Below, in pieces: positions 2,113-14,417 of a DNA stretch of 64,000 bases. How positions within the stretch are numbered: the stretch's first letter is position 1; the number at the start of each line of letters is the position of its first letter. Under the pieces are notes generated by a model that was not told the origin of the DNA, made no database searches, and saw only the letters and a list, made by a program, of their open reading frames with translations. Source of the DNA: an uncultured Anaerolineales bacterium (lineage in GTDB: Bacteria > Chloroflexota > Anaerolineae > Anaerolineales > UBA11858); NCBI GenBank assembly GCA_964344175.1, contig CAYFMI010000004.1, positions 5,805 through 69,804 on the forward strand. Reading direction: 5' to 3'. A program made the position numbers and the translations under genes.

Positions 2113-3474
2113 CTATTGATTTGACAGAAAGTCTTCCAGGGCGCGCCCGGCTCTTTCGGCGTAGGCCTGCATCCGTTGACGCTTGTTGCGCCGCCCCTTC
2201 CCTGCCCCAGCATCCAATGGCGGCAGTATCCCAAAATTGGCCTTCATCGGTTGGAAGTCTGCCGGGCTGGCATGGGTGATGTAGTGACACAATGCGCCCA
2301 ACATCGTATCGCGAGGCAATTCCAAAGGGGTCTGCCCTCGCAGGTGTCGGGCCGCATTCCACCCGGCCAACAGCCCGGTGGCTATATTTCCGGCATACCC
2401 TTCTACACCGGTGATCTGTCCGGCGAAAAACAAATCTCGTCGGCTGTGAAACTGAAGCGTTGGCTGCAACAAGGTCGGTGCGAAGATAAATGTATTACGG
2501 TGCATCTGACCGTAGCGGGCAAACTCCGCTTTTTCCAGCCCTGGGATCATTCGAAAGACGCGGCGCTGCTCAGAAAAGGTTAAATTCGTCTGAAATCCTA
2601 CCAGGTTGTATAGCGATCCAGCCAGGTCGTCCTGGCGAAGCTGAACAACTGCATAGGGGCGCTTGCCGGTGCGCGGGTCCACCAAACCGACCGGGCGCAA
2701 CGGGCCGAAGGCCAATGTATCCTGCCCGCGTTGCCCCAGGATTTCAACCGGAAGACATCCCTCAAAGAAGGTGTGCATCCCGGCTTTAACGCCACTCTCC
2801 AGGTTTTGCTCAAACGACTTCAAGGCAATCCGCTTGGCAGAGGTCAGGGCATCCACAAAGGCGTAATATTGGGCCTCATCGAATGGGCAGTTGATATAGT
2901 CGCCGTCCGCTTGCTCGCCGCGCCCATAACGCGAGGCCCGATAAGCCACCTGCATATTGATTGATTCGAGTGTCACGATGGGCGAGATGGCATCGAAGAA
3001 ATAAAGATGCTCTTGCCCCGTCAGGGAGGCGATAGCGTCGGAGAGGCGGTTGGATGTTAGCGGGCCAGATGCAATGATGGCTGGGGTATCTGGGATCTGG
3101 GTTATTTCCCGACGCACAATTTCGACCTGGGGATGCTCCACCAGGCGGGCTGTTACTTGTTGGGCAAAGGCCTGGCGGTCCACCGCCAGCGCACCTCCGG
3201 CGGGAACCGCAGTTTCGTCGGCGCAGCGGATCAGGAGCGAACCCATGCGGCGAAGTTCGTTCTTAAGCACACCAGGGGCGCGATCGGGCAAGTTCGAACC
3301 GAGAGAATTTGAGCATACCAACTCGGCCAAATCGCCGCCGGTATGCGCGCCAGTTTCGAGCTTAGGCCGCATTTCATACAGCCCTACTCGTATACCTCTT
3401 TGGGCGGCCTGCCAGGCTGCTTCACTCCCCGCCAGACCGCCGCCAACAATTATCAGTTCATGCGTAGTCGTCAT
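2113..3474 (-). CDS. trmFO: methylenetetrahydrofolate--tRNA-(uracil-5-)-methyltransferase TrmFO
   Basis: FAD-binding [14 protein letters not shown] and full-length TrmFO/Gid-like sequence ([20 protein letters not shown]). Start moved to MTTTHEL (ATG 3474). The 32-codon upstream extension in the track looks non-coding. Confidence 0.94.
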
Positions 3475-3564
3475 CAATAGTAGAAAACGGGAATTCGAAA
3501 ATCCAATAAGAATCTCAAGTGGCCGTATTGTACCAGGGAAGATCGGTACCACTCTTGCAACTTT

Positions 3565-3580
3565 TGGCACATTTCTTGCA
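3565..3580 (+). promoter_or_regulatory. sigma-54 (-24/-12) promoter candidate upstream of rpoN
   Basis: TGGCAC(3565-3570)-ATTTC-TTGCA(3576-3580) exactly matches the TGGCAC-N5-TTGCW core, 48 nt upstream of the rpoN ATG in the correct orientation. It overlaps a possible sigma-70 promoter (TTGCAA 3576-3581, 17 nt spacer, TATACT 3599-3604). Confidence 0.6.
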
Positions 3581-3627
3581 ACTTTAAGGATTAATCGCTA
3601 TACTATCGATACCGGAAAGGTCTTCGT

Positions 3628-5058
3628 ATGTACCCAATCCATCTTCAGCAAATTGGCCCTCGGACTACGGCACACCTGGCACAAACAATGACTTTACTCG
3701 GCATGACCACCGCCGAGTTAAAGCAAAAAATTGAGGCCGAATTATCCCAAAACCCGGCCCTGGAATTACTTGAGGCGCGTAGCTGCCGCACCTGTGGGCG
3801 CACGCTGGTTGGGTCAACGCCTTGTTCAATTTGCTCTCGTCCCCATAATCCCGACAACGCCGAACCGATTGTCTTTACCTCCGCCCGGCAGGATTTTTAC
3901 GTCAACGCCGGGGGGAACACAACGAACTCACTTTCTCCCGAAGATTTACCGGATGACAATATCTCGCCCGAGGTTGATCTAGCCAGCTATGTGCTCCGGC
4001 AAATTGCGCCGGAGTTGGCTGAGCAAGACCGCGGGATTGCGGCCCATATTCTCACCAGCCTGGATGAGGATGGCTTGCTGCCAATCCCCCTCTTTGAGAT
4101 CAGCCGTTACCATCATGTTTCTCCCGAACGCGTCGGAGCAGTATTAGAATTGATCCAGCACTCGGAGCCAATTGGCGTAGGCGCCGGCAGCCCTCAAGAA
4201 GCGCTTTTGATCCAGCTCAACATTCTCGAACAGACTCAGGCGGTACCTCAGCATGCTGAACGCGCTATTCGAGAGGGGATGCACTTGCTCAGCCGCTACC
4301 ATTACGCCAAACTCGGCCAACTGCTGGACATCCCTCCCCAGGAGGCAGAGGCAATTGCTCAATTTATCAGTGCCAACCTCAACCCTTATCCGGGGCGCTC
4401 TCATTGGGGCAGTATCCGCCAGGGAAGCGAAGCTCATCCGGAGGTCTATCATCATCCCGACATTGTCATCAGCATGCTCAACGGGAAGAGCGATGGCCCG
4501 TTGGTCGTCGAATTGCTTTTCCCCTTATGGGGGTCCTTGCGCATCCAACCGCTCTTTCGCAGAGAGATCAAAAACGCCCCGAAGGACAAGGCTGCGGCAT
4601 GGCATGAAGATTTAGAAAGGGCCAATCTTTTGATAAAATGCCTGCGGCAGCGCGAGAACACCATGCAGCAACTGGCAACCGAAATCGCCAGAGAACAGCG
4701 CGGTTTCATTTTGCGGGGCGACCGGCATTCAAAACCGATGACGCGCGCCAGCATTGCTGACCGTCTCGGCGTGCATGAGTCGACAATTTCGCGGGCAGTA
4801 TCCGGAAAAACTGCGCAATTGCCAAATGGGCGCATCATCCCACTGAGTAAGTTTTTCGACCGCAGCCTTCACATTCGCGCCCAAATTCGAGAGATCATCA
4901 TGCATGAAAAGAATGCGTTGACGGACGCCCAAATTGCCGATATGCTCAAAGAATATGGGCATGATATTGCCCGGCGGACGGTTGCCAAATATCGCTCCAT
5001 GGAAGGGATACTATCGGCGCGCACGCGTCAAAGAGTCGCAAATCCATCCAATGGTTAA
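3628..5058 (+). CDS. rpoN: RNA polymerase sigma-54 factor RpoN
   Basis: Region I (LLGMTTAELKQKIEAELSQNPALELLE), core-binding region, C-terminal HTH and RpoN box (ARRTVAKYR). An unusual CxxC-N9-CxxC insertion follows region I. Confidence 0.93.
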   Translation: MYPIHLQQIGPRTTAHLAQTMTLLGMTTAELKQKIEAELSQNPALELLEARSCRTCGRTLVGSTPCSICSRPHNPDNAEPIVFTSARQDFYVNAGGNTTNSLSPEDLPDDNISPEVDLASYVLRQIAPELAEQDRGIAAHILTSLDEDGLLPIPLFEISRYHHVSPERVGAVLELIQHSEPIGVGAGSPQEALLIQLNILEQTQAVPQHAERAIREGMHLLSRYHYAKLGQLLDIPPQEAEAIAQFISANLNPYPGRSHWGSIRQGSEAHPEVYHHPDIVISMLNGKSDGPLVVELLFPLWGSLRIQPLFRREIKNAPKDKAAAWHEDLERANLLIKCLRQRENTMQQLATEIAREQRGFILRGDRHSKPMTRASIADRLGVHESTISRAVSGKTAQLPNGRIIPLSKFFDRSLHIRAQIREIIMHEKNALTDAQIADMLKEYGHDIARRTVAKYRSMEGILSARTRQRVANPSNG

Positions 5059-7042
5059 TTTCTTTTCTCGCTCCCGAACAGCGGCTTTGCCGCAACTCAG
5101 CATTGAAGATCTTGAAGAATTTCTATTGGTCATCTCCAAAGCGGCTATTCTGATTAACAACGAAAGCCGCCAGATCGTCGCTGTGAACCCAAAAGTGATG
5201 GAGATTAGCGCCTACACGCGGGCCGAGTTAAAGAGTATGCAAATTGAGCAACTTTTTAATGAGTGCATCGACGCCTATCTCGTCGCCCGTCAATCTCAAA
5301 GAGAACCCACTCTCCCGCGCCTGATTCTGCTGACGCGCAACGGGCATCATATCCCGGTAAGTTTACATGCCCAACCATTGGCGAATAATCGTCCCTGGGT
5401 TTTGCTGACCTTCGAAAGCGTTGATTTGCGCAAGCGAAAGAAGATTGGCGAAAGCCTGTTGAGCAACCTGCTTAACGAACAATTATTGGCGCTGGCTGTC
5501 GCCCTCTCTATTGCGGATCCCGACGCGGCCCTGAAGCGGGTGCTCGAAATTGGCGAGACATTGCTCCCAGAGAGTACATTGGGCGCGTATATCGGCCAGA
5601 GTCAAAAACCCAGCGCGAGGCTGGTCAGCGCGCGGGGGCCAGATGCAGACGTGCTCCCCGACGAGGTGTCTGCTCAGGACTTAAACCATTTGTTCAAGGC
5701 CTCACTCTGGCGGCAGGGCGAACGCGCCATTCTGACATTGTTGCACCAGCGCGTTCGCACAGCCAAATTCGCCTATCTGGCATCATCCCCCATCAGCGAA
5801 CCAAGTGAAACAAGAGCCTGGCTGGGGTTTCTCGTTGCAGGCGGGCGGAATACGCCCCACGAAAGCACTGCCCAAATCCTAAATATTCTGGCTGCCTTCA
5901 CCGGCACAATCATCCGCAATACTATTTTGTTGACCCACTTGCGCAGGTCGATCACAGACTGCCAGGCCCGCCTCAACACATGGGAATTGGCAAAAGACCA
6001 TATCCGGGATGGCGTCATTGTGATTTCACCTTCTATGCAGGTCGTATCGGTCAACCCATCGGCAGAATATATCTTCGGCTACGCTGCCCGAGAGATTCAA
6101 GGTGTGGCTATCGAAAACGTTCTCATTGGCAACAAGCATCTGATCCCGGCGATCCAAAACGCTTTGGAAGGCACGACTATTCCAAATATTGGTAATGCCA
6201 CCCTGCACCGCCGCGATGGGACAATCTTCCCGGCAGAATTATCCATCACGCCACTCCACAATGGAGATCAACTCTCCGGGGCGATCATCATTGTGCGCGA
6301 TATTAGCAAAGATGAACAAATTCGCATCCACACCCAACAACTTGAGCAACGCGCCTTACTCGGTGAAGTCACGGCAGTCTTTGCCCACGAAGTGCGCAAC
6401 CCCATCAACAACATCAGCATGGGGCTGCAACTGCTCGACCGGAGATTCGACAACGATCACCCTGAAAAAGAACGCATTCTGAATATGCAAGACGACTGTC
6501 AACGCCTGACCGCATTGATGGATTCGGTACTCGTTTTTTCACGCACGGGGAATTATGCATTCGTCCCCACAGATGCCCATCAGCTTCTGCAGCGCATTCT
6601 GAAGCGCTGGCACCCGCGCATGGCTCATGTCGGCGTTGAATATCATCTCCAGGCATCCAAAGATCTACCCGAAATCTCTGGCGATGCCCGCAGTCTGGAG
6701 CAAGTTTTTACCAATATTATCAGTAATGCCATCCAGGCTATGCAAGAGAATGGCGGACTGCTTTCGATTAAACTTTCTACAAAAAACAACCCTGGCGGTA
6801 AGACTATTGTACAGATCGATTTTTCCGATACTGGCCCAGGGATCCCTGAAGCGCATATCGAAAAAATATTCGACCCCTTCTACACGACCAACCCGCAGGG
6901 CACCGGCCTGGGTCTTGCCATCACCAAACAAATTATCACCGCCCATCGAGGCACAATTACAGTGACATCCTTCCCCGGCGGCACGATCTTTCACGTCCAG
7001 TTGCCGGTTGCCACCCCCACAACGGAGACACCCGCCTTATGA
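5051..7042 (+). CDS. PAS domain sensor histidine kinase (NtrB-like)
   Basis: H-box FAHEVRNPINNI with N and G boxes (SNAIQAM, DTGPGI, GTGLGLAITKQI), preceded by PAS-like segments. Start placed at ATG 5051 (MVNFFSR), overlapping the rpoN stop by 8 nt. The track's longer 4934 start lies inside rpoN. Confidence 0.9.
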   Translation: MVNFFSRSRTAALPQLSIEDLEEFLLVISKAAILINNESRQIVAVNPKVMEISAYTRAELKSMQIEQLFNECIDAYLVARQSQREPTLPRLILLTRNGHHIPVSLHAQPLANNRPWVLLTFESVDLRKRKKIGESLLSNLLNEQLLALAVALSIADPDAALKRVLEIGETLLPESTLGAYIGQSQKPSARLVSARGPDADVLPDEVSAQDLNHLFKASLWRQGERAILTLLHQRVRTAKFAYLASSPISEPSETRAWLGFLVAGGRNTPHESTAQILNILAAFTGTIIRNTILLTHLRRSITDCQARLNTWELAKDHIRDGVIVISPSMQVVSVNPSAEYIFGYAAREIQGVAIENVLIGNKHLIPAIQNALEGTTIPNIGNATLHRRDGTIFPAELSITPLHNGDQLSGAIIIVRDISKDEQIRIHTQQLEQRALLGEVTAVFAHEVRNPINNISMGLQLLDRRFDNDHPEKERILNMQDDCQRLTALMDSVLVFSRTGNYAFVPTDAHQLLQRILKRWHPRMAHVGVEYHLQASKDLPEISGDARSLEQVFTNIISNAIQAMQENGGLLSIKLSTKNNPGGKTIVQIDFSDTGPGIPEAHIEKIFDPFYTTNPQGTGLGLAITKQIITAHRGTITVTSFPGGTIFHVQLPVATPTTETPAL

Positions 7043-8208
7043 CAGCGACGATCCTTATTGTCGACGATGAAGAAAACGCCCGCAAACACATCGGAGATTT
7101 TCTTACCGAAGAGGGCTACGAAGTACTGACCGCGGCAAACCTGAGTGATGCCCGCACTCAAATAGCAAACGAGAGCGCCGACATCATATTGCTGGATGTG
7201 CAGCTCCCAGATGGCTATGGCCCCGACTTGCTCGAAGAGACCGCACAGATGAGCGCGCGCCCGCCGATCATCTTGATCACGGCACACGGCGATATCGACA
7301 TGGCTGTCGAAGCCATGCGTAATGGCGCTCACGATTTTTTGCAAAAGCCGATCCAATTCGAACGGCTCGATCAATCGATCCTGCGGGCTAAAGAACTGGT
7401 CGCTCTGCGCCGCGAGTTAAACCACCTGCGCGGTCGGCAGCGCGGCAGCAACGATTTTGTCGTGGGGAACAGTGCAGCCATGCGTAACCTGCTTCAGCAT
7501 GCCCAACGCGCCGCCCAAGCATCGGTGTCGGTATTAATCACTGGAGAAACCGGCACCGGAAAAGAAGTGTTAGCAAGTGCCATTCACCAAATGAGTCCCC
7601 GTGCCGAAAAACCCTTTGTGGGCATCAACTGTGCCGCCATTCAAAGCACGGTCTTAGAATCGGAATTATTTGGCTATGAGGCCGGCGCCTTTACCGGTGC
7701 GCAAAAACGAAAACACGGCTTGATGGAAGTCGCCGACGAAGGCATATTATTCCTCGATGAGATTTCGTCCATGCCGGTGGATATGCAGGCCAAACTGCTG
7801 CGCGCTATCGAAGAACAAGCCTTCCGCCGGGTCGGGGGCACCAACCTCATCAAAGTCGATGTCCAAATTCTGGCCGCATCGAACCGCGATTTGCAAAAAA
7901 TGATCGCATCCGGTCAATTCCGCGAAGATCTCTATTATCGTCTCAAAGTGGTTGATTTACACCTGCCCCCATTACGCGAGCGCAAAGAGGATATCCCCGC
8001 GCTGATTGCCCTCTTCATCCAGATGAACAATCTCCGCATGGGGTTGAACATTAACGATATGTCCCCGCGGGCAATGTCAGTGTTGGCACAACACGACTGG
8101 CCGGGCAATATTCGCGAACTACGCAACGTCATCGAACGCGCCATGCTGTTCTGCGATGATGCCGCAATTGACCTGCAGCACCTGTCGCCCGAACTGACTT
8201 CCGGGTAG
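7039..8208 (+). CDS. sigma-54-dependent response regulator (REC + AAA+), no DNA-binding domain
   Basis: REC (ILLDVQLPDG), Walker A GETGTGKE, GAFTGA loop (YEAGAFTGAQ), and sensor II GNIRELRNVIERA. The protein ends about 25 aa later with no Fis-type HTH. ATGA overlap with the upstream kinase. Confidence 0.92.
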   Translation: MTATILIVDDEENARKHIGDFLTEEGYEVLTAANLSDARTQIANESADIILLDVQLPDGYGPDLLEETAQMSARPPIILITAHGDIDMAVEAMRNGAHDFLQKPIQFERLDQSILRAKELVALRRELNHLRGRQRGSNDFVVGNSAAMRNLLQHAQRAAQASVSVLITGETGTGKEVLASAIHQMSPRAEKPFVGINCAAIQSTVLESELFGYEAGAFTGAQKRKHGLMEVADEGILFLDEISSMPVDMQAKLLRAIEEQAFRRVGGTNLIKVDVQILAASNRDLQKMIASGQFREDLYYRLKVVDLHLPPLRERKEDIPALIALFIQMNNLRMGLNINDMSPRAMSVLAQHDWPGNIRELRNVIERAMLFCDDAAIDLQHLSPELTSG

Positions 8209-8280: not shown

Positions 8281-8460
8281 ATGAATTTAGGTCCAACTGA
8301 GCTGATTATTATATTGATTATTGTTATCCTCCTCTTTGGTGTTGGCCGCATTGGGAAAATTGCTGGCGAACTCGGTGGCGGCATTCGCGCCTTCCGCGAG
8401 GGCTTGAAGGACGACGAAGAAAACGAAGAGGCACCCCCCACCGACGAACATCAAGCCTGA
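8281..8460 (+). CDS. tatA: twin-arginine translocase subunit TatA/E
   Basis: 59-aa ORF below the track threshold: MNLGPTELIIILIIVILLFGVGRIGKIAGELGGGIRAFREGLKDDEENEE... It shows the typical TatA TM helix, FG hinge and amphipathic helix. AGGAG RBS sits 8 nt upstream. The minus ORF 8259..8441 is its shadow. Confidence 0.85.
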   Translation: MNLGPTELIIILIIVILLFGVGRIGKIAGELGGGIRAFREGLKDDEENEEAPPTDEHQA

Positions 8461-8491: not shown

Positions 8492-8528
8492 AAGGTCTTG
8501 CTGGGTTCATTGCCGCAAGGCCTTTATT
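8492..8528 (+). terminator. putative intrinsic terminator after tatA
   Basis: Stem AGGTCTTGC / GCAAGGCCT (one G-U pair) followed by TTTATT. It overlaps the track's long modA start, supporting the internal modA start. Confidence 0.4.
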
Positions 8529-8545
8529 CATGCGGAAAATCGCAC

Positions 8546-9322
8546 ATGTCACGGCAGTCAAGATTGCTTCTAACTTTGGCGCTCATCATCGCAACGCAAA
8601 TTAGCGGTGGTTGCCAGAGTATGCAAGCACCTCAAGGCTTAACCATTGCGGCTGCATCCAGCTTGCACACTGCCTTTCGCGAAATCGGCACATCTTTTAG
8701 CCAACAAACCGGGGTTCCGGTCACATTTTCTTTTGCAGCAACCGGGACACTCACCCAGCAAATGAAACATGGTGCGCCTTTTGACATCTTTGCCGCCGCA
8801 GATACACGCCACGTCGCCGATTTGACCGAGCAAGGCTTTATTGCCCCAGGCAGCCAGGCAATATTCGCCAATGGCGAAATTGCGTTAGTCTTTCACCGAA
8901 ATTCCGGGCTAGAAATTAACACCCTCGACGATCTGACGACCGAATCGATTGAACGAATAACGATTGCCAACCCAAAGATAGCGCCCTACGGCATGGCCGC
9001 CCAACAAGCGCTCGAACATGCTGGTTTATGGCAGCAATATGAAGATCGCCTCATTTACGGAGAAAATGTGCGCCAATCGCTGCAATTTGTTGAGAGCGGC
9101 GAAGTTACCATTGGCATCCTGCCCGTCTCCCTGCTGCTTGAAAGCGACCTTCTTCGCATCCCCATTAACGCCGAATTCTATCACCCTGTCGAACACGGCA
9201 TAGGGATCGCGACTCAAACTCAGCATGCGAAGGATGCGCAACTTTTCTTGGCGTTCATACTCAGCCCCGAGGGGCAAACAATCTTGAACAAGCATGGGCT
9301 ATCCTCGCCCAAAAAACCCTAA
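8546..9322 (+). CDS. modA: molybdate ABC transporter substrate-binding lipoprotein ModA
   Basis: Signal/lipobox (LALIIATQISGGC) and ModA-type motifs (IAAASSL, FAATGTLTQQMKHGAPFDIFAAAD). Followed by modB and modC. Start at ATG 8546. Confidence 0.9.
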   Translation: MSRQSRLLLTLALIIATQISGGCQSMQAPQGLTIAAASSLHTAFREIGTSFSQQTGVPVTFSFAATGTLTQQMKHGAPFDIFAAADTRHVADLTEQGFIAPGSQAIFANGEIALVFHRNSGLEINTLDDLTTESIERITIANPKIAPYGMAAQQALEHAGLWQQYEDRLIYGENVRQSLQFVESGEVTIGILPVSLLLESDLLRIPINAEFYHPVEHGIGIATQTQHAKDAQLFLAFILSPEGQTILNKHGLSSPKKP

Positions 9323-9334
9323 TCGTCTACGTAC

Positions 9335-9988
9335 ATGATCCCCCTGTTAATCTCGCTGCGCGTGGCAACGCTGGCAACATTCATCGCAGCCTTCGTTGGC
9401 ACCACTCTGGCAGCCCTGCTCGCCAAACGTCAGGGCTTGTTCTGGTATTTCCTGGATGGCGCCATCAACCTGCCCCTTGTTCTCCCGCCAACGGTATTGG
9501 GATACTACCTACTGATACTCTTTAGTCAGCGCACACTGTTAGGGGGCTGGCTGGCTTCTTTGGGAATTCAACTCACCTTTACCTGGGTCGGAGCCACACT
9601 CGCTGCCAGCGCGGTGGCGCTGCCCCTGGTGATGCAATCGGCGCGCGCCGCCATCGAAGCGGTTCCCCAGGACTTCCAGGATGTTGCCCGAACGCTGGGA
9701 CGCGCCCCCCTGGGGGTCTTCTTCACGGTCACATTGCCCTTAGCCTGGCGCGGCGTGATGGCCGGCATCATCCTGGCCTTTGCGCGTGCCTTAGGCGAGT
9801 TTGGGGCCACCCTGATGGTAGCCGGTAACATTCCCGGAAAAACCCAGACGCTTTCTATCGCCATTTATGATGCCGTTCAGGCCGGAGAAAGCCTGCGCGC
9901 CAATCAGCTCTCGCTGCTGCTCACCGTAGTAGCCATTACCCTATTGATCTTGATTCGCACGCTGACAACGCGCCTGGCCGAGAAATGA
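9335..9988 (+). CDS. modB: molybdate ABC transporter permease ModB
   Basis: 5-6 TM permease with ModB-like NLPLVLPPTVLGYYLL and the EAA-type loop (ARALGEFGATLMVAGNIPG). Confidence 0.92.
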   Translation: MIPLLISLRVATLATFIAAFVGTTLAALLAKRQGLFWYFLDGAINLPLVLPPTVLGYYLLILFSQRTLLGGWLASLGIQLTFTWVGATLAASAVALPLVMQSARAAIEAVPQDFQDVARTLGRAPLGVFFTVTLPLAWRGVMAGIILAFARALGEFGATLMVAGNIPGKTQTLSIAIYDAVQAGESLRANQLSLLLTVVAITLLILIRTLTTRLAEK

Positions 9989-11124
9989 TGCAGCCAACCC
10001 AACCGCAAAGCACAGCCCTCGATGTCACCATCAACCTGGTTTTAGAAGATTTCCATCTCGAAGCCAACTTTCAGGCCGACGCGGAGATCATCGCTATCTT
10101 TGGGCCTTCGGGAGCCGGAAAAAGCACCACCCTGCGCGCCATTGCCGGGTTGCTCTCGCCCCAGCATGGCATCATCCGCCTGGGAGAAAAAACTCTCTTC
10201 GACGACAGGAAAAAGATCAATTTGCCGCCCCAAAGCCGCGGGGTTGGGTATGTGCCTCAAAATTTTGCCCTCTTTCCACATCTGACCACCTCCGCGAATA
10301 TTGCCTACGGCCTCCACCGCGCCACAAAAGAACATCGCCGCCAAAGGGTGTCTGAACTATTGCACTTGCTCCAGCTCGAAAAACTCGCTCAACGCAAAGC
10401 CAGCGAATTGTCTGGCGGGCAGCAACAACGCGTTGCCCTGGCGCGGGCACTGGCCCCCAATCCAGACATTTTACTCATGGACGAACCCTTTGCCGCGCTA
10501 GACGAGACTTTGCGCCACACCCTGCGCGGCGAATTGCGCACCATTCCACAGCGCTTTGGGGTTCCCCTGATTCTGGTTACCCACAACCTCGGCGAAGCGC
10601 ACAGCCTTGCCAGTCAATTGGTGATCCTCGATCAGGGTAAAATGCTCCAGGCTGGGCCGCGTAAAACCATCCTGCATCACCCCATCACACCCGCCGTGGC
10701 ACGCATTGTCGGCATGAACAATATTCTCAAGATGACAATTGCAGAACAGGATGAGGGAAAAAACGTACTCAACTGGGGCGGGATTCAGCTTGCCGCGCCG
10801 CCTCTCCCTAGAGGCTTGCAACTCGGACGTGAAGTTTTGGTGGGCATCCGCCCCGAGGGGATTCGCCTCGTCGAGACGCGCCCCCCAAATTGTATCCCCC
10901 ACACCAACCGTATTGAAGCGCACCTGCACACCGATGAAGACCTGGGCCACGAGCACCACCTGACCGTCCTGCCCCGCGCGGCCCCCGACACTCCGCTCGA
11001 AATCCGCATCGCCGCGCCGGATTTCGAAGCCAGCGGTTTGCGCGTTGGCAGCCGCTGTCATCTTGAAATCTCCCCTGAGGCAATGCACATCTTCCATGAA
11101 CACGCTTCGATAGCCCCGGCATGA
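9985..11124 (+). CDS. modC: molybdate ABC transporter ATP-binding protein ModC (with TOBE-like C-terminus)
   Basis: Walker A GPSGAGKST, signature LSGGQQQRVALARAL, Walker B LLMDEPF, plus a C-terminal extension of about 120 aa. ATGA overlap with modB. Confidence 0.92.
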   Translation: MMQPTQPQSTALDVTINLVLEDFHLEANFQADAEIIAIFGPSGAGKSTTLRAIAGLLSPQHGIIRLGEKTLFDDRKKINLPPQSRGVGYVPQNFALFPHLTTSANIAYGLHRATKEHRRQRVSELLHLLQLEKLAQRKASELSGGQQQRVALARALAPNPDILLMDEPFAALDETLRHTLRGELRTIPQRFGVPLILVTHNLGEAHSLASQLVILDQGKMLQAGPRKTILHHPITPAVARIVGMNNILKMTIAEQDEGKNVLNWGGIQLAAPPLPRGLQLGREVLVGIRPEGIRLVETRPPNCIPHTNRIEAHLHTDEDLGHEHHLTVLPRAAPDTPLEIRIAAPDFEASGLRVGSRCHLEISPEAMHIFHEHASIAPA

Positions 11125-13712: not shown

Positions 13713-13943
13713 CTAAAATTCATCGTCATCATCTAACCAGTCGTCGTCATCAAAATCGTCTTCTTCCCATTCGTCAAAACCTTCGAGTTCATCTTCCCAA
13801 TCCGCGTCTTCGACTTCAAAGGGATCATCTAATTGCGTAAAGGTTAAACATCCCTCATCCGGGTCGATATTTACCATTGGTGCAGTGCAATAACCTTTCT
13901 CAAGATAAACACACCCAACATAAAGGCAGCGTATTTTGGGCAT
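13713..13943 (-). CDS. small Cys-rich (DUF1540-like) protein with poly-acidic C-terminal tail
   Basis: 76 aa. The N-terminal IRCLYVGCVYLEKGYCTAPMVNIDPDEGCLTF resembles the DUF1540 Cys pattern. 25 of the last 38 residues are D/E, interspersed with W/F, ending DDDDEF. Sits 24 nt downstream of the VKOR gene on the same strand. Confidence 0.6.
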   Translation of the reverse strand: MPKIRCLYVGCVYLEKGYCTAPMVNIDPDEGCLTFTQLDDPFEVEDADWEDELEGFDEWEEDDFDDDDWLDDDDEF

Positions 13944-13967: not shown

Positions 13968-14417
13968 TCAAGAGTCAATTTCGATGTCTTCATCCTGCAA
14001 CAAGCGTACCACAGAAACCCCCAACAAGGCAACCATCACAATGGCGGAAAGCACGCAGTACGGACAAATAGCACGGAGTACGGCTACTTCAATATAGGTC
14101 AGATAAGCGGAATACAGCACCCCGGTTAGACTAAAGCCAAACACAATCATCGCGGCATATTCTTGGAAGAATTTGCCGCGATCTTCCAGCAGCAAAAGAG
14201 CAATCATCAACAGATACGCCCCGGCCCCAAATATAGCGATGGGGATTCCGGCGAATTCTGCGTAAGGGCTATTATTGACCGATTCGCAATCACCAATGCC
14301 TGCACAAGCAGCCGTTGCGTTCGCAATTTTAAGCCAGGCCAGATAAATTGAATCTGCCAATCCGATTAATGATAAGACAACCGAAATATTTTTGAGATTA
14401 AGTTTTGTTTTTTTCAT
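13968..14417 (-). CDS. vitamin K epoxide reductase (VKOR) family membrane protein
   Basis: Multi-TM protein with a loop Cys pair (CAGIGDC) and a membrane-embedded CPYC redox motif. No fused thioredoxin domain. Confidence 0.8.
   Translation of the reverse strand: MKKTKLNLKNISVVLSLIGLADSIYLAWLKIANATAACAGIGDCESVNNSPYAEFAGIPIAIFGAGAYLLMIALLLLEDRGKFFQEYAAMIVFGFSLTGVLYSAYLTYIEVAVLRAICPYCVLSAIVMVALLGVSVVRLLQDEDIEIDS

Follow-up and report, generated by a model that had tools for sequence, protein, structure and literature searches.

Sigma-54 is usually described as a constitutive factor that is made from a sigma-70 promoter, with regulation left to the activators. Its holoenzyme forms stable closed complexes, which are opened by an AAA+ activator. 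Both B. japonicum rpoN2 and P. putida rpoN are negatively autoregulated, and the nifU2-rpoN operon of R. capsulatus is a sigma-54-dependent rpoN operon. For R. etli rpoN1 and R. leguminosarum rpoN, passages in two papers (PMC3916325, PMC3538637) describe that sigma-54 limits the expression of its own gene. The prxS-rpoN2 operons of R. etli and M. loti are activated by NifA (PMC3538637); these rpoN2 genes are second copies that are primed by the housekeeping rpoN1, and NifA acts on them at an upstream activating sequence. The autoregulation in Proteobacteria rests on genetics, and rpoN is not co-transcribed there with a kinase and an activator. No operator architecture conserved across a clade is described for it in the literature that we found.

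[quoted passage not shown] In glmY, sigma-54 binding represses the sigma-70 promoter, and the two promoters share one start nucleotide. An adjacent two-component system, GlrK/GlrR, turns on the sigma-54 promoter, and the regulator GlrR binds upstream sites via its DNA-binding domain; related species differ in having the sigma-70 part. In terms of gene arrangement, the closest system is rpoN2-vemR-fleQ of Xanthomonas, in which rpoN is co-transcribed with a response regulator and the cognate sigma-54 activator (PMC12271599). That operon includes no histidine kinase, FleQ carries a DNA-binding domain, and no sigma-54 site has been reported at its promoter (PMC12271599). [quoted passage not shown] They consist of REC and AAA+ domains and end after the lid, activation without an enhancer is presumed for them, and co-transcription of flgR or ctcC with rpoN has not been reported. 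Our literature search found no paper on sigma-54 regulation in Anaerolineae, and a 2011 survey recorded the presence of sigma-54 in some Chloroflexi and noted nothing further (PMC3162934).

Here, we explored the rpoN locus of an uncultured Anaerolineales bacterium in a 64-kb stretch of DNA, the whole of which is called the window below. The gene rpoN is separated from the divergent gene trmFO by an intergenic region of 153 nt (positions 3475-3627). Within this region, the forward strand carries a sigma-54-type -24/-12 element at 3565-3580, which consists of TGGCAC (3565-3570), ATTTC (3571-3575) and TTGCA (3576-3580). Direct reading confirmed what the preliminary description had claimed, an exact match to TGGCAC-N5-TTGCW located 48 nt before the rpoN ATG at 3628. 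The GG and GC of the element are exactly 10 bp apart, as they are in a sigma-54 promoter, the orientation is correct, and a Shine-Dalgarno-like GGAAAGG (3614-3620, forward strand, 7 nt before the ATG) lies between the element and the gene. If the C of the GC at 3579 is taken as -12, the geometry predicts a sigma-54 start at about 3591.

The match alone is only mildly improbable. TGGCAC-N5-TTGCW occurs once in the 64-kb window against an expectation of 0.09, at least one match was found in 8 of 100 shuffles, and at one mismatch the window has 6 matches where 3.15 would be expected. The statistic is thus weakly significant, and the earlier estimate of 0.03 chance matches was a little optimistic. 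It is the conservation across orthologous loci that places the site beyond chance.

To describe this conservation, orthologous loci were collected from species-representative genomes (8 loci) and from metagenomes (80 loci). The metagenome scan used a clade-specific N-terminal alignment, which kept the universal RpoN box from swamping the results. From these 88 loci and the window, we counted the 86 loci that had at least 100 nt of upstream DNA. Their RpoN proteins are 45-72% identical to that of the window. A -24/-12 element is present upstream of rpoN in all 86 loci, close relatives included, which answers the question of conservation that the preliminary description had raised. The gap between its end and the first codon is 32-52 nt, except in two outliers (67 and 114 nt). 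The match to TGGCAC-N5-TTGCW is exact in 41 loci and has one mismatch in 23, two in 16 and three in 6, and both the GG and the TTGCA (GG-N10-TTGCA) are retained in every one of the 86 sites. In the six closest relatives, the only invariant blocks of the intergenic region are GGCA, TTGCAAC, TATACT and the start codon.

We also examined 62 control rpoN loci outside the clade, from other phyla and other Chloroflexota classes, each with 345 nt of upstream sequence. They contained no exact match and one match with one mismatch. The rpoN loci of a Chloroflexia genome (L011) and a Limnocylindria genome (L014) have neither the upstream site nor the kinase-activator operon described below, and therefore the feature is confined to the RpoN clade of the window. 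Taken together, the conservation in 86/86 loci and the nearly empty control lead to the conclusion that the site is real and clade-specific. These comparisons support the view that 3565-3580 is a genuine and deeply conserved site of the sigma-54 type. The idea that the site serves the divergent gene was rejected, because the upstream neighbour varies (trmFO, other genes, sometimes a gene on the same strand) and rpoN is constant.

A position weight matrix (PWM) was built from the 82 unique rpoN sites and scanned over both strands of 742 kb, that is, the window and the 88 loci. The element at 3565-3580 scores 28.9 bits. Apart from the rpoN sites, the scan revealed a second conserved site directly 3' of the activator gene in 34 loci, and about 8 stray matches of at least 12 bits were found elsewhere in the 742 kb. 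The second site is followed by a leader hairpin and a gene for a small membrane protein of 104-122 aa, for which no Pfam family was found. Because the same motif precedes this gene in 34 loci, TGGCAY-N5-TTGCA can be regarded as the working sigma-54 consensus of the clade. The window has no homologue of the small membrane protein, and a tatA-like ORF occupies that position. No sigma-54 site of at least 12 bits was found in the window besides the two at rpoN. The one-mismatch matches in the window score between -1.6 and 11.2 bits, the one at 13996 on the minus strand being a borderline candidate.

The second of the two sites at rpoN belongs to a tandem duplication of 21 bp, in which 3544-3564 and 3565-3585 are identical at 16 of 21 positions. 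The upstream copy contains a degenerate sigma-54-like element, CGGTAC-CACTC-TTGCA, at 3544-3559 on the forward strand, which scores 12.4 bits against 28.9 bits for the proximal element. The preliminary description had noticed an 11-nt direct repeat, CTTGCAACTTT, at 3554-3564 and again at 3575-3585, and had read it as a possible site of a separate regulator. The repeat exists, and the regulator reading was rejected: the repeat is the -12 half of the duplicated sigma-54 element, a feature that recurs in relatives. Distal elements were found 16-50 bp upstream of the main element in eight other loci (L084, L086, L092, L098, L110, L131, L136 and L160), and the periods of the tandem elements in relatives are 16-23 bp. 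Since distal elements occur in relatives far above the background rate, the repeat is best understood as a second sigma-54-type element. It could act as a tandem promoter or as a landing site for the polymerase, or it could influence the divergent promoter. Tandem sigma-54 promoters have been predicted for other sigma-54 genes (PMC3916325).

On the divergent side, trmFO (2113-3474, minus strand; NF003739, 626 bits against a cutoff of 262) forms the left border of the intergenic region. Read on the minus strand, the sequence ATTGTACCA at 3527-3535 gives TGGTACAAT, an extended -10 box that probably represents the trmFO promoter. Such a minus-strand -10 motif is found in 31 of the 53 loci that have a divergent upstream gene. 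Control in both directions is thus packed into the short trmFO-rpoN intergenic region. A search for structured RNAs in 3400-3720 gave no Rfam match at E-values up to 1. Nor does the comparison within the clade reveal a conserved enhancer about 80-150 bp upstream; conservation upstream of the site is limited to the divergent -10 box and the tandem element. The lack of an enhancer would be expected with an activator free of a DNA-binding domain, and hence it is a weak argument against function.

Downstream, rpoN opens a conserved and translationally coupled operon that continues with genes for a PAS histidine kinase and an activator of the NtrC type. The product of 3628-5058 (forward strand, 476 aa) has the Pfam domains Sigma54_AID, CBD and DBD together with the RpoN box ARRTVAKYR, so that its earlier assignment as rpoN holds. 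It aligns over its full length to solved sigma-54 structures, and it carries a CxxC...CxxC insertion at residues 53-69. The RpoN box, by which the -24 element is read, does not vary within the clade. The second gene (5051-7042, forward strand) encodes a PAS-HisKA-HATPase sensor histidine kinase, and its start overlaps the rpoN stop by 8 nt; a histidine kinase lies 3' of rpoN in every clade locus of sufficient length. The third gene (7039-8208, forward strand), whose start overlaps the kinase stop as ATGA, encodes a response-regulator sigma-54 activator of 389 aa made up of REC, AAA+ and lid.

The activator has a Walker A motif and an intact GAFTGA loop at residue 216, in agreement with the earlier view that this gene encodes a sigma-54 activator. 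Both components of a sigma-54 promoter system, an intact RpoN box and a GAFTGA activator, are therefore encoded here. No DNA-binding domain (HTH) was found in the activator, whose lid ends at residue 387 of 389. Its alignment to the AtoC and NtrC models stops at about position 385 of about 461, and the protein reaches no NCBIfam equivalog cutoff; partial matches are best for AtoC, NtrC and NtrX and weaker for FlgR. The orthologues are 388-400 aa long in 49/49 loci and 60-81% identical. This composition, REC and AAA+ with GAFTGA ending directly past the lid, is that of the FlgR/CtcC type. The 64-kb window contains one rpoN gene and one activator gene.

The sigma-54 element is overlapped by a promoter of the sigmaA type. 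In the window, TTGCAA at 3576-3581 (forward strand) is both the -12 box of the sigma-54 element and a -35 box, and TATACT at 3599-3604 (forward strand), which is invariant in the six closest relatives, is the -10 box; the predicted sigmaA start is at about 3611-3612. The combination TTGCAA-17-TATACT is a 9/12 match, and 11 matches of this kind occur in 5.4 kb against 5.2 expected. The window's promoter becomes convincing because it is conserved and because the boxes are missing at the promoters that are targets of sigma-54 alone. The preliminary description had proposed TTGCAA-17-TATACT as an overlapping promoter of the sigma-70 type, and the conservation of this geometry in 44 loci bears it out. 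The overlap had, however, been seen merely as a complication. The overlap itself stands, and what was overlooked is a likely repressive component: because the overlap with the sigmaA promoter is obligatory, such a component becomes likely.

A canonical sigmaA-type -10 hexamer accompanies 84 of the 86 rpoN sites, and its position falls into three fixed registers. The window belongs to class A (44 loci), in which TTGCAN is the -35 box and the spacer to TATACT measures 17 nt, with two loci at 16 nt. Class B comprises 20 loci, in which TATAAT starts exactly 6 nt past TTGCA and the nTGGCA of the -24 element lies at the -35 position, which gives the geometry nTGGCA-17-TATAAT. In the 21 loci of class C, the -24 element has an extended -10 box (TGnTATAAT) inside it, formed by TGGTATAAT or TGGTATACT. 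Hexamers with a spacing of 16-18 bp overlap the -24/-12 element, as is expected of a dual promoter. The predicted sigma-54 and sigmaA starts are about 20 nt apart in class A and about 8 nt apart in class B.

A neighbour-joining tree of RpoN showed that classes B and C are each monophyletic and nested in a paraphyletic class A. It follows that the sigmaA promoter moved on two occasions, whereas the sigma-54 element kept its place and was still overlapped; the register changes amount to two evolutionary events. The window carries the ancestral register, TTGCAA-17-TATACT.

With these features at hand, the locus can be compared with the described systems. As in glmY, a -35/-10 promoter physically overlaps a -24/-12 promoter, the kinase and the activator are likewise adjacent, and not every relative has the sigma-70-type part. 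The repression of the sigma-70 promoter that is known from glmY would have its equivalent in the rpoN clade. However, the starts predicted here differ (about 3591 for sigma-54, about 3611 for sigmaA), a DNA-binding domain like that of GlrR is missing from the activator, and the phylum is a different one. Moreover, the regulated gene is rpoN together with its own kinase and activator, which creates a feedback loop.

The closest regulatory logic is that of rhizobial rpoN autoregulation and of NifA-driven rpoN2 operons, as far as they are set out in passages of PMC3538637 and PMC3916325. The preliminary description had called it unusual for sigma-54 to drive its own gene. The arrangement is indeed uncommon, and according to the same passages it has precedents in these rhizobial cases. 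The architecture that negative autoregulation of rpoN presupposes, a sigma-54 site overlapping a sigmaA promoter, is found here. As in the rpoN2 operons, where control is positive, a -24/-12 promoter stands ahead of an operon containing rpoN. Unlike those operons, the 64-kb window has no second rpoN, and it is apparently the sigmaA promoter that primes expression; a second, priming sigma-54 or further activators may exist elsewhere in the genome. The DNA-binding activator at an upstream activating sequence that characterises the rpoN2 type was not found either, since the activator has no HTH and no upstream site is conserved.

Autoregulated ECF operons resemble the locus in the way they work only. 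They also combine a sigma factor with its signalling partners, a self-recognised promoter and an apparently small set of targets. However, ECF sigma factors belong to an unrelated family (sigma-70 group 4) and are controlled by anti-sigma factors, whereas an ATPase activator is present here. No known system that we compared combines all of the elements found at this locus; the individual principles are already established.

How could such a promoter work? The sequence fits activation of rpoN, repression of rpoN, or both, with a repressive component likely. We consider it probable that the same site serves basal expression by sigmaA, then occlusion by sigma-54, and then activator-dependent firing. 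The sigmaA promoter would supply starting levels of sigma-54, kinase and activator. As sigma-54 holoenzyme accumulates, it would occupy the site as a stable closed complex and block the sigmaA promoter, which would constitute negative feedback. Once the kinase phosphorylates the activator, the closed complex would open and the whole operon would be transcribed from about 3591, which would constitute positive feedback.

Two features of the locus underlie this proposal. The sigma-54 site is interlocked with the sigmaA promoter because the -12 box TTGCAA doubles as the -35 box, and a sigma-54 site that overlaps another promoter leads to repression in other systems (PMC4591121; glmY, PMC3045617). 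Lacking a DNA-binding domain, the activator would be free to work from solution on whichever closed complexes sigma-54 forms. What the DNA directly shows is the site with its universal conservation and its obligatory overlap with the sigmaA boxes, together with the operon and the domains that make up the activator. From this architecture, together with the known behaviour of closed complexes, of repression and of enhancer-free activation, we infer a circuit with two modes, in which sigma-54 binding, occlusion and activation would all take place at the rpoN site.

It may be argued that the site is an operator only, at which a dead-end closed complex blocks the sigmaA promoter and from which rpoN is never transcribed. 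We regard this as unlikely. The sigmaA overlap is obligatory in all three registers, and overlapping promoters are repressed by sigma-54 in other bacteria (PMC4591121, PMC3045617). According to the passages cited above, R. etli rpoN1 and R. leguminosarum rpoN are negatively autoregulated (PMC3916325, PMC3538637). In addition, Pseudomonas rpoN loci carry AGGCATATAATTTGCT, a GG-N10-GC-like sequence that embeds TATAAT between GG and GC, much like class C; these sites have two mismatches and the T of TGG is absent.

By their PWM scores, however, the rpoN sites fit the clade consensus at least as closely as do the target promoters that are served by sigma-54 alone. Their melting region is not GC-rich either: the AT fraction just 3' of the -12 is 0.65, 0.74 and 0.50 in classes A, B and C, against 0.53 at the target promoters. 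The distance from the element to the ATG is constant across classes A-C, although the sigmaA start shifts by about 30 nt. Finally, with an activator lacking a DNA-binding domain, it is hard to see how this single closed complex could be kept from being opened.

The opposite simplification, that rpoN is transcribed solely by sigma-54 and that the sigmaA-like hexamers are incidental or serve another purpose, appears improbable. A sigma factor cannot bring about its own synthesis from zero. The canonical hexamers are found in fixed registers at 84/86 rpoN sites, whereas TAYAMT in the relevant registers was found at only 1/34 target sites, and TATACT is invariant in close relatives whose flanks have diverged. 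It is true that the sigma-54 element is the most conserved feature (86/86), that two loci (L007 and L101) show no recognisable sigmaA boxes among the 86 rpoN sites, and that the sigmaA match of the window is just 9/12.

It is highly unlikely that TGGCAY-N5-TTGCA has nothing to do with sigma-54, resembles the -24/-12 consensus by coincidence and either binds some unrelated regulator or extends the sigmaA promoter upstream. A -35 box by itself would account for the TTGCA of class A. The TTGCA of classes B and C, however, lies in the sigmaA spacer or past the -10 box and is still kept unchanged, exactly 10 bp from the GG; the same bipartite motif precedes a second gene right after the sigma-54 activator gene, and the RpoN box is invariant in the clade. 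A chance motif in the intergenic region, for which the shuffles with at least one exact match (8/100) could be quoted, is hardly conceivable and was rejected, given the same position in 86/86 orthologous loci amid diverged flanks and the absence of exact matches from the 62 controls outside the clade.

The comparison over 86 loci from a little-studied and mostly uncultured group thus places sigma-54 on its own operon, together with a kinase and an enhancer-independent activator. For Anaerolineae, it yields a first sigma-54 promoter consensus at the sequence level and a first candidate member of the regulon. For specialists on sigma-54, the points of note are the conservation in every locus, the three overlap registers and the way the cassette is laid out. 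We tentatively suggest that in this Chloroflexota lineage sigma-54 may be a self-contained and self-regulating signalling cassette, and not a global factor with many activators. Its parts, offered with the same reserve, might be a sigma-54 with a Cys4 insertion, one kinase, one activator free of a DNA-binding domain, a dual promoter for sigmaA and sigma-54, and often one adjacent small membrane-protein target. If this is true, the cassette would work like an ECF-type module or a bistable switch, with one and the same bound polymerase repressing its own operon at first and driving it afterwards, and the three overlap registers would be evidence of selection for competition between two polymerases.

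The position immediately 3' of the activator gene was occupied by a TGGCAY-N5-TTGCA promoter in 34 loci of the RpoN clade, and this promoter was of the sigma-54-only type, that is, without sigmaA boxes. It precedes a gene encoding a membrane protein of 104-122 amino acids, and promoter and gene together span, for example, L003:8546-8925, L008:8553-8929 and L082:10733-11133 (the other 31 loci are arranged in the same way). The protein has a single N-terminal transmembrane helix and the conserved motif IAEQTxKLAQKGI, and no Pfam family was found for it. The cassette formed by rpoN, the PAS histidine kinase and the activator probably has this small gene as its main target. A CCTCC...GGAGG hairpin was detected in 22 of 35 leaders of the gene (for example, L004:5713-5745 and L095:8574-8607). 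Because this hairpin, if formed, would sequester the Shine-Dalgarno sequence, it suggests that translational control is imposed on top of the sigma-54 promoter.

The window has neither the sigma-54-only promoter nor the small membrane-protein gene. The activator gene is followed there by a tatA-like ORF of 59 amino acids (8281-8460, +) and by genes for an ABC transporter (8498-11124, +) consisting of a ModA-like solute-binding protein, a permease and a TOBE-domain ATPase; no sigma-54 site was found at the ORF or the transporter genes. A possible target site in the genome of the window is the element TGGTAC-GCTTG-TTGCA at 13996-14011 (-), whose 11.2 bits on the matrix built from the clade rpoN sites is a chance-level score. 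It falls in the 3'-terminal part of a VKOR-like gene (13968-14417, -), and 51 nt downstream of it GAGGAG-ATG opens an ORF (13713-13943, -) that encodes an extremely acidic, Cys-rich protein of 76 amino acids and is followed by a terminator hairpin. No homologue of this ORF was found among the loci fetched.

On the side of the divergent gene, the extended -10 box TGGTACAAT is directed toward trmFO at 3527-3535 (-) of the window. Of 53 clade loci, 31 have boxes of the TGGTAnAAT type upstream of their divergent genes, suggesting that promoters of the extended -10 kind are frequent in the clade. In a few loci, an opposite-strand sigma-54-like element directed at the divergent gene adjoins or overlaps the rpoN element (L156:278, L161:5958 and L093:5949, all -).

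Three Pseudomonas loci (L023, L027 and L054) carry AGGCATATAATTTGCT about 130 nt upstream of the rpoN match. Here TATAAT is set between the GG and the GC, an arrangement that resembles those clade sites where an extended sigmaA -10 box is embedded in the -24 element. This sequence may be the basis of the negative rpoN autoregulation reported for pseudomonads.

The full module and its site were also present in L002, a record labelled Candidatus Aquidulcis sp. that the NCBI taxonomy places in Candidatus Limnocylindria. The module is missing, however, from L014, a true Limnocylindria locus. Thus, either the module reaches outside Anaerolineae or L002 was wrongly binned or labelled. In a more distant Anaerolineales rpoN (L012:84-2417, 35% identity), an activator orthologue (49% identity) follows rpoN directly, with no kinase between them; the sequence upstream of this rpoN is truncated.

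Directly after region I, the clade RpoN contains a zinc-ribbon-like CxxC...CxxC insertion (window 3784-3834, residues 53-69), which was also found in Chloroflexia and Limnocylindria (L011 and L014), whereas E. coli sigma-54 has a cysteine-free acidic region II at this place. The insertion is intriguing because RpoN in Helicobacter is stabilised by the zinc-ribbon protein FlgZ (PMC3372290).
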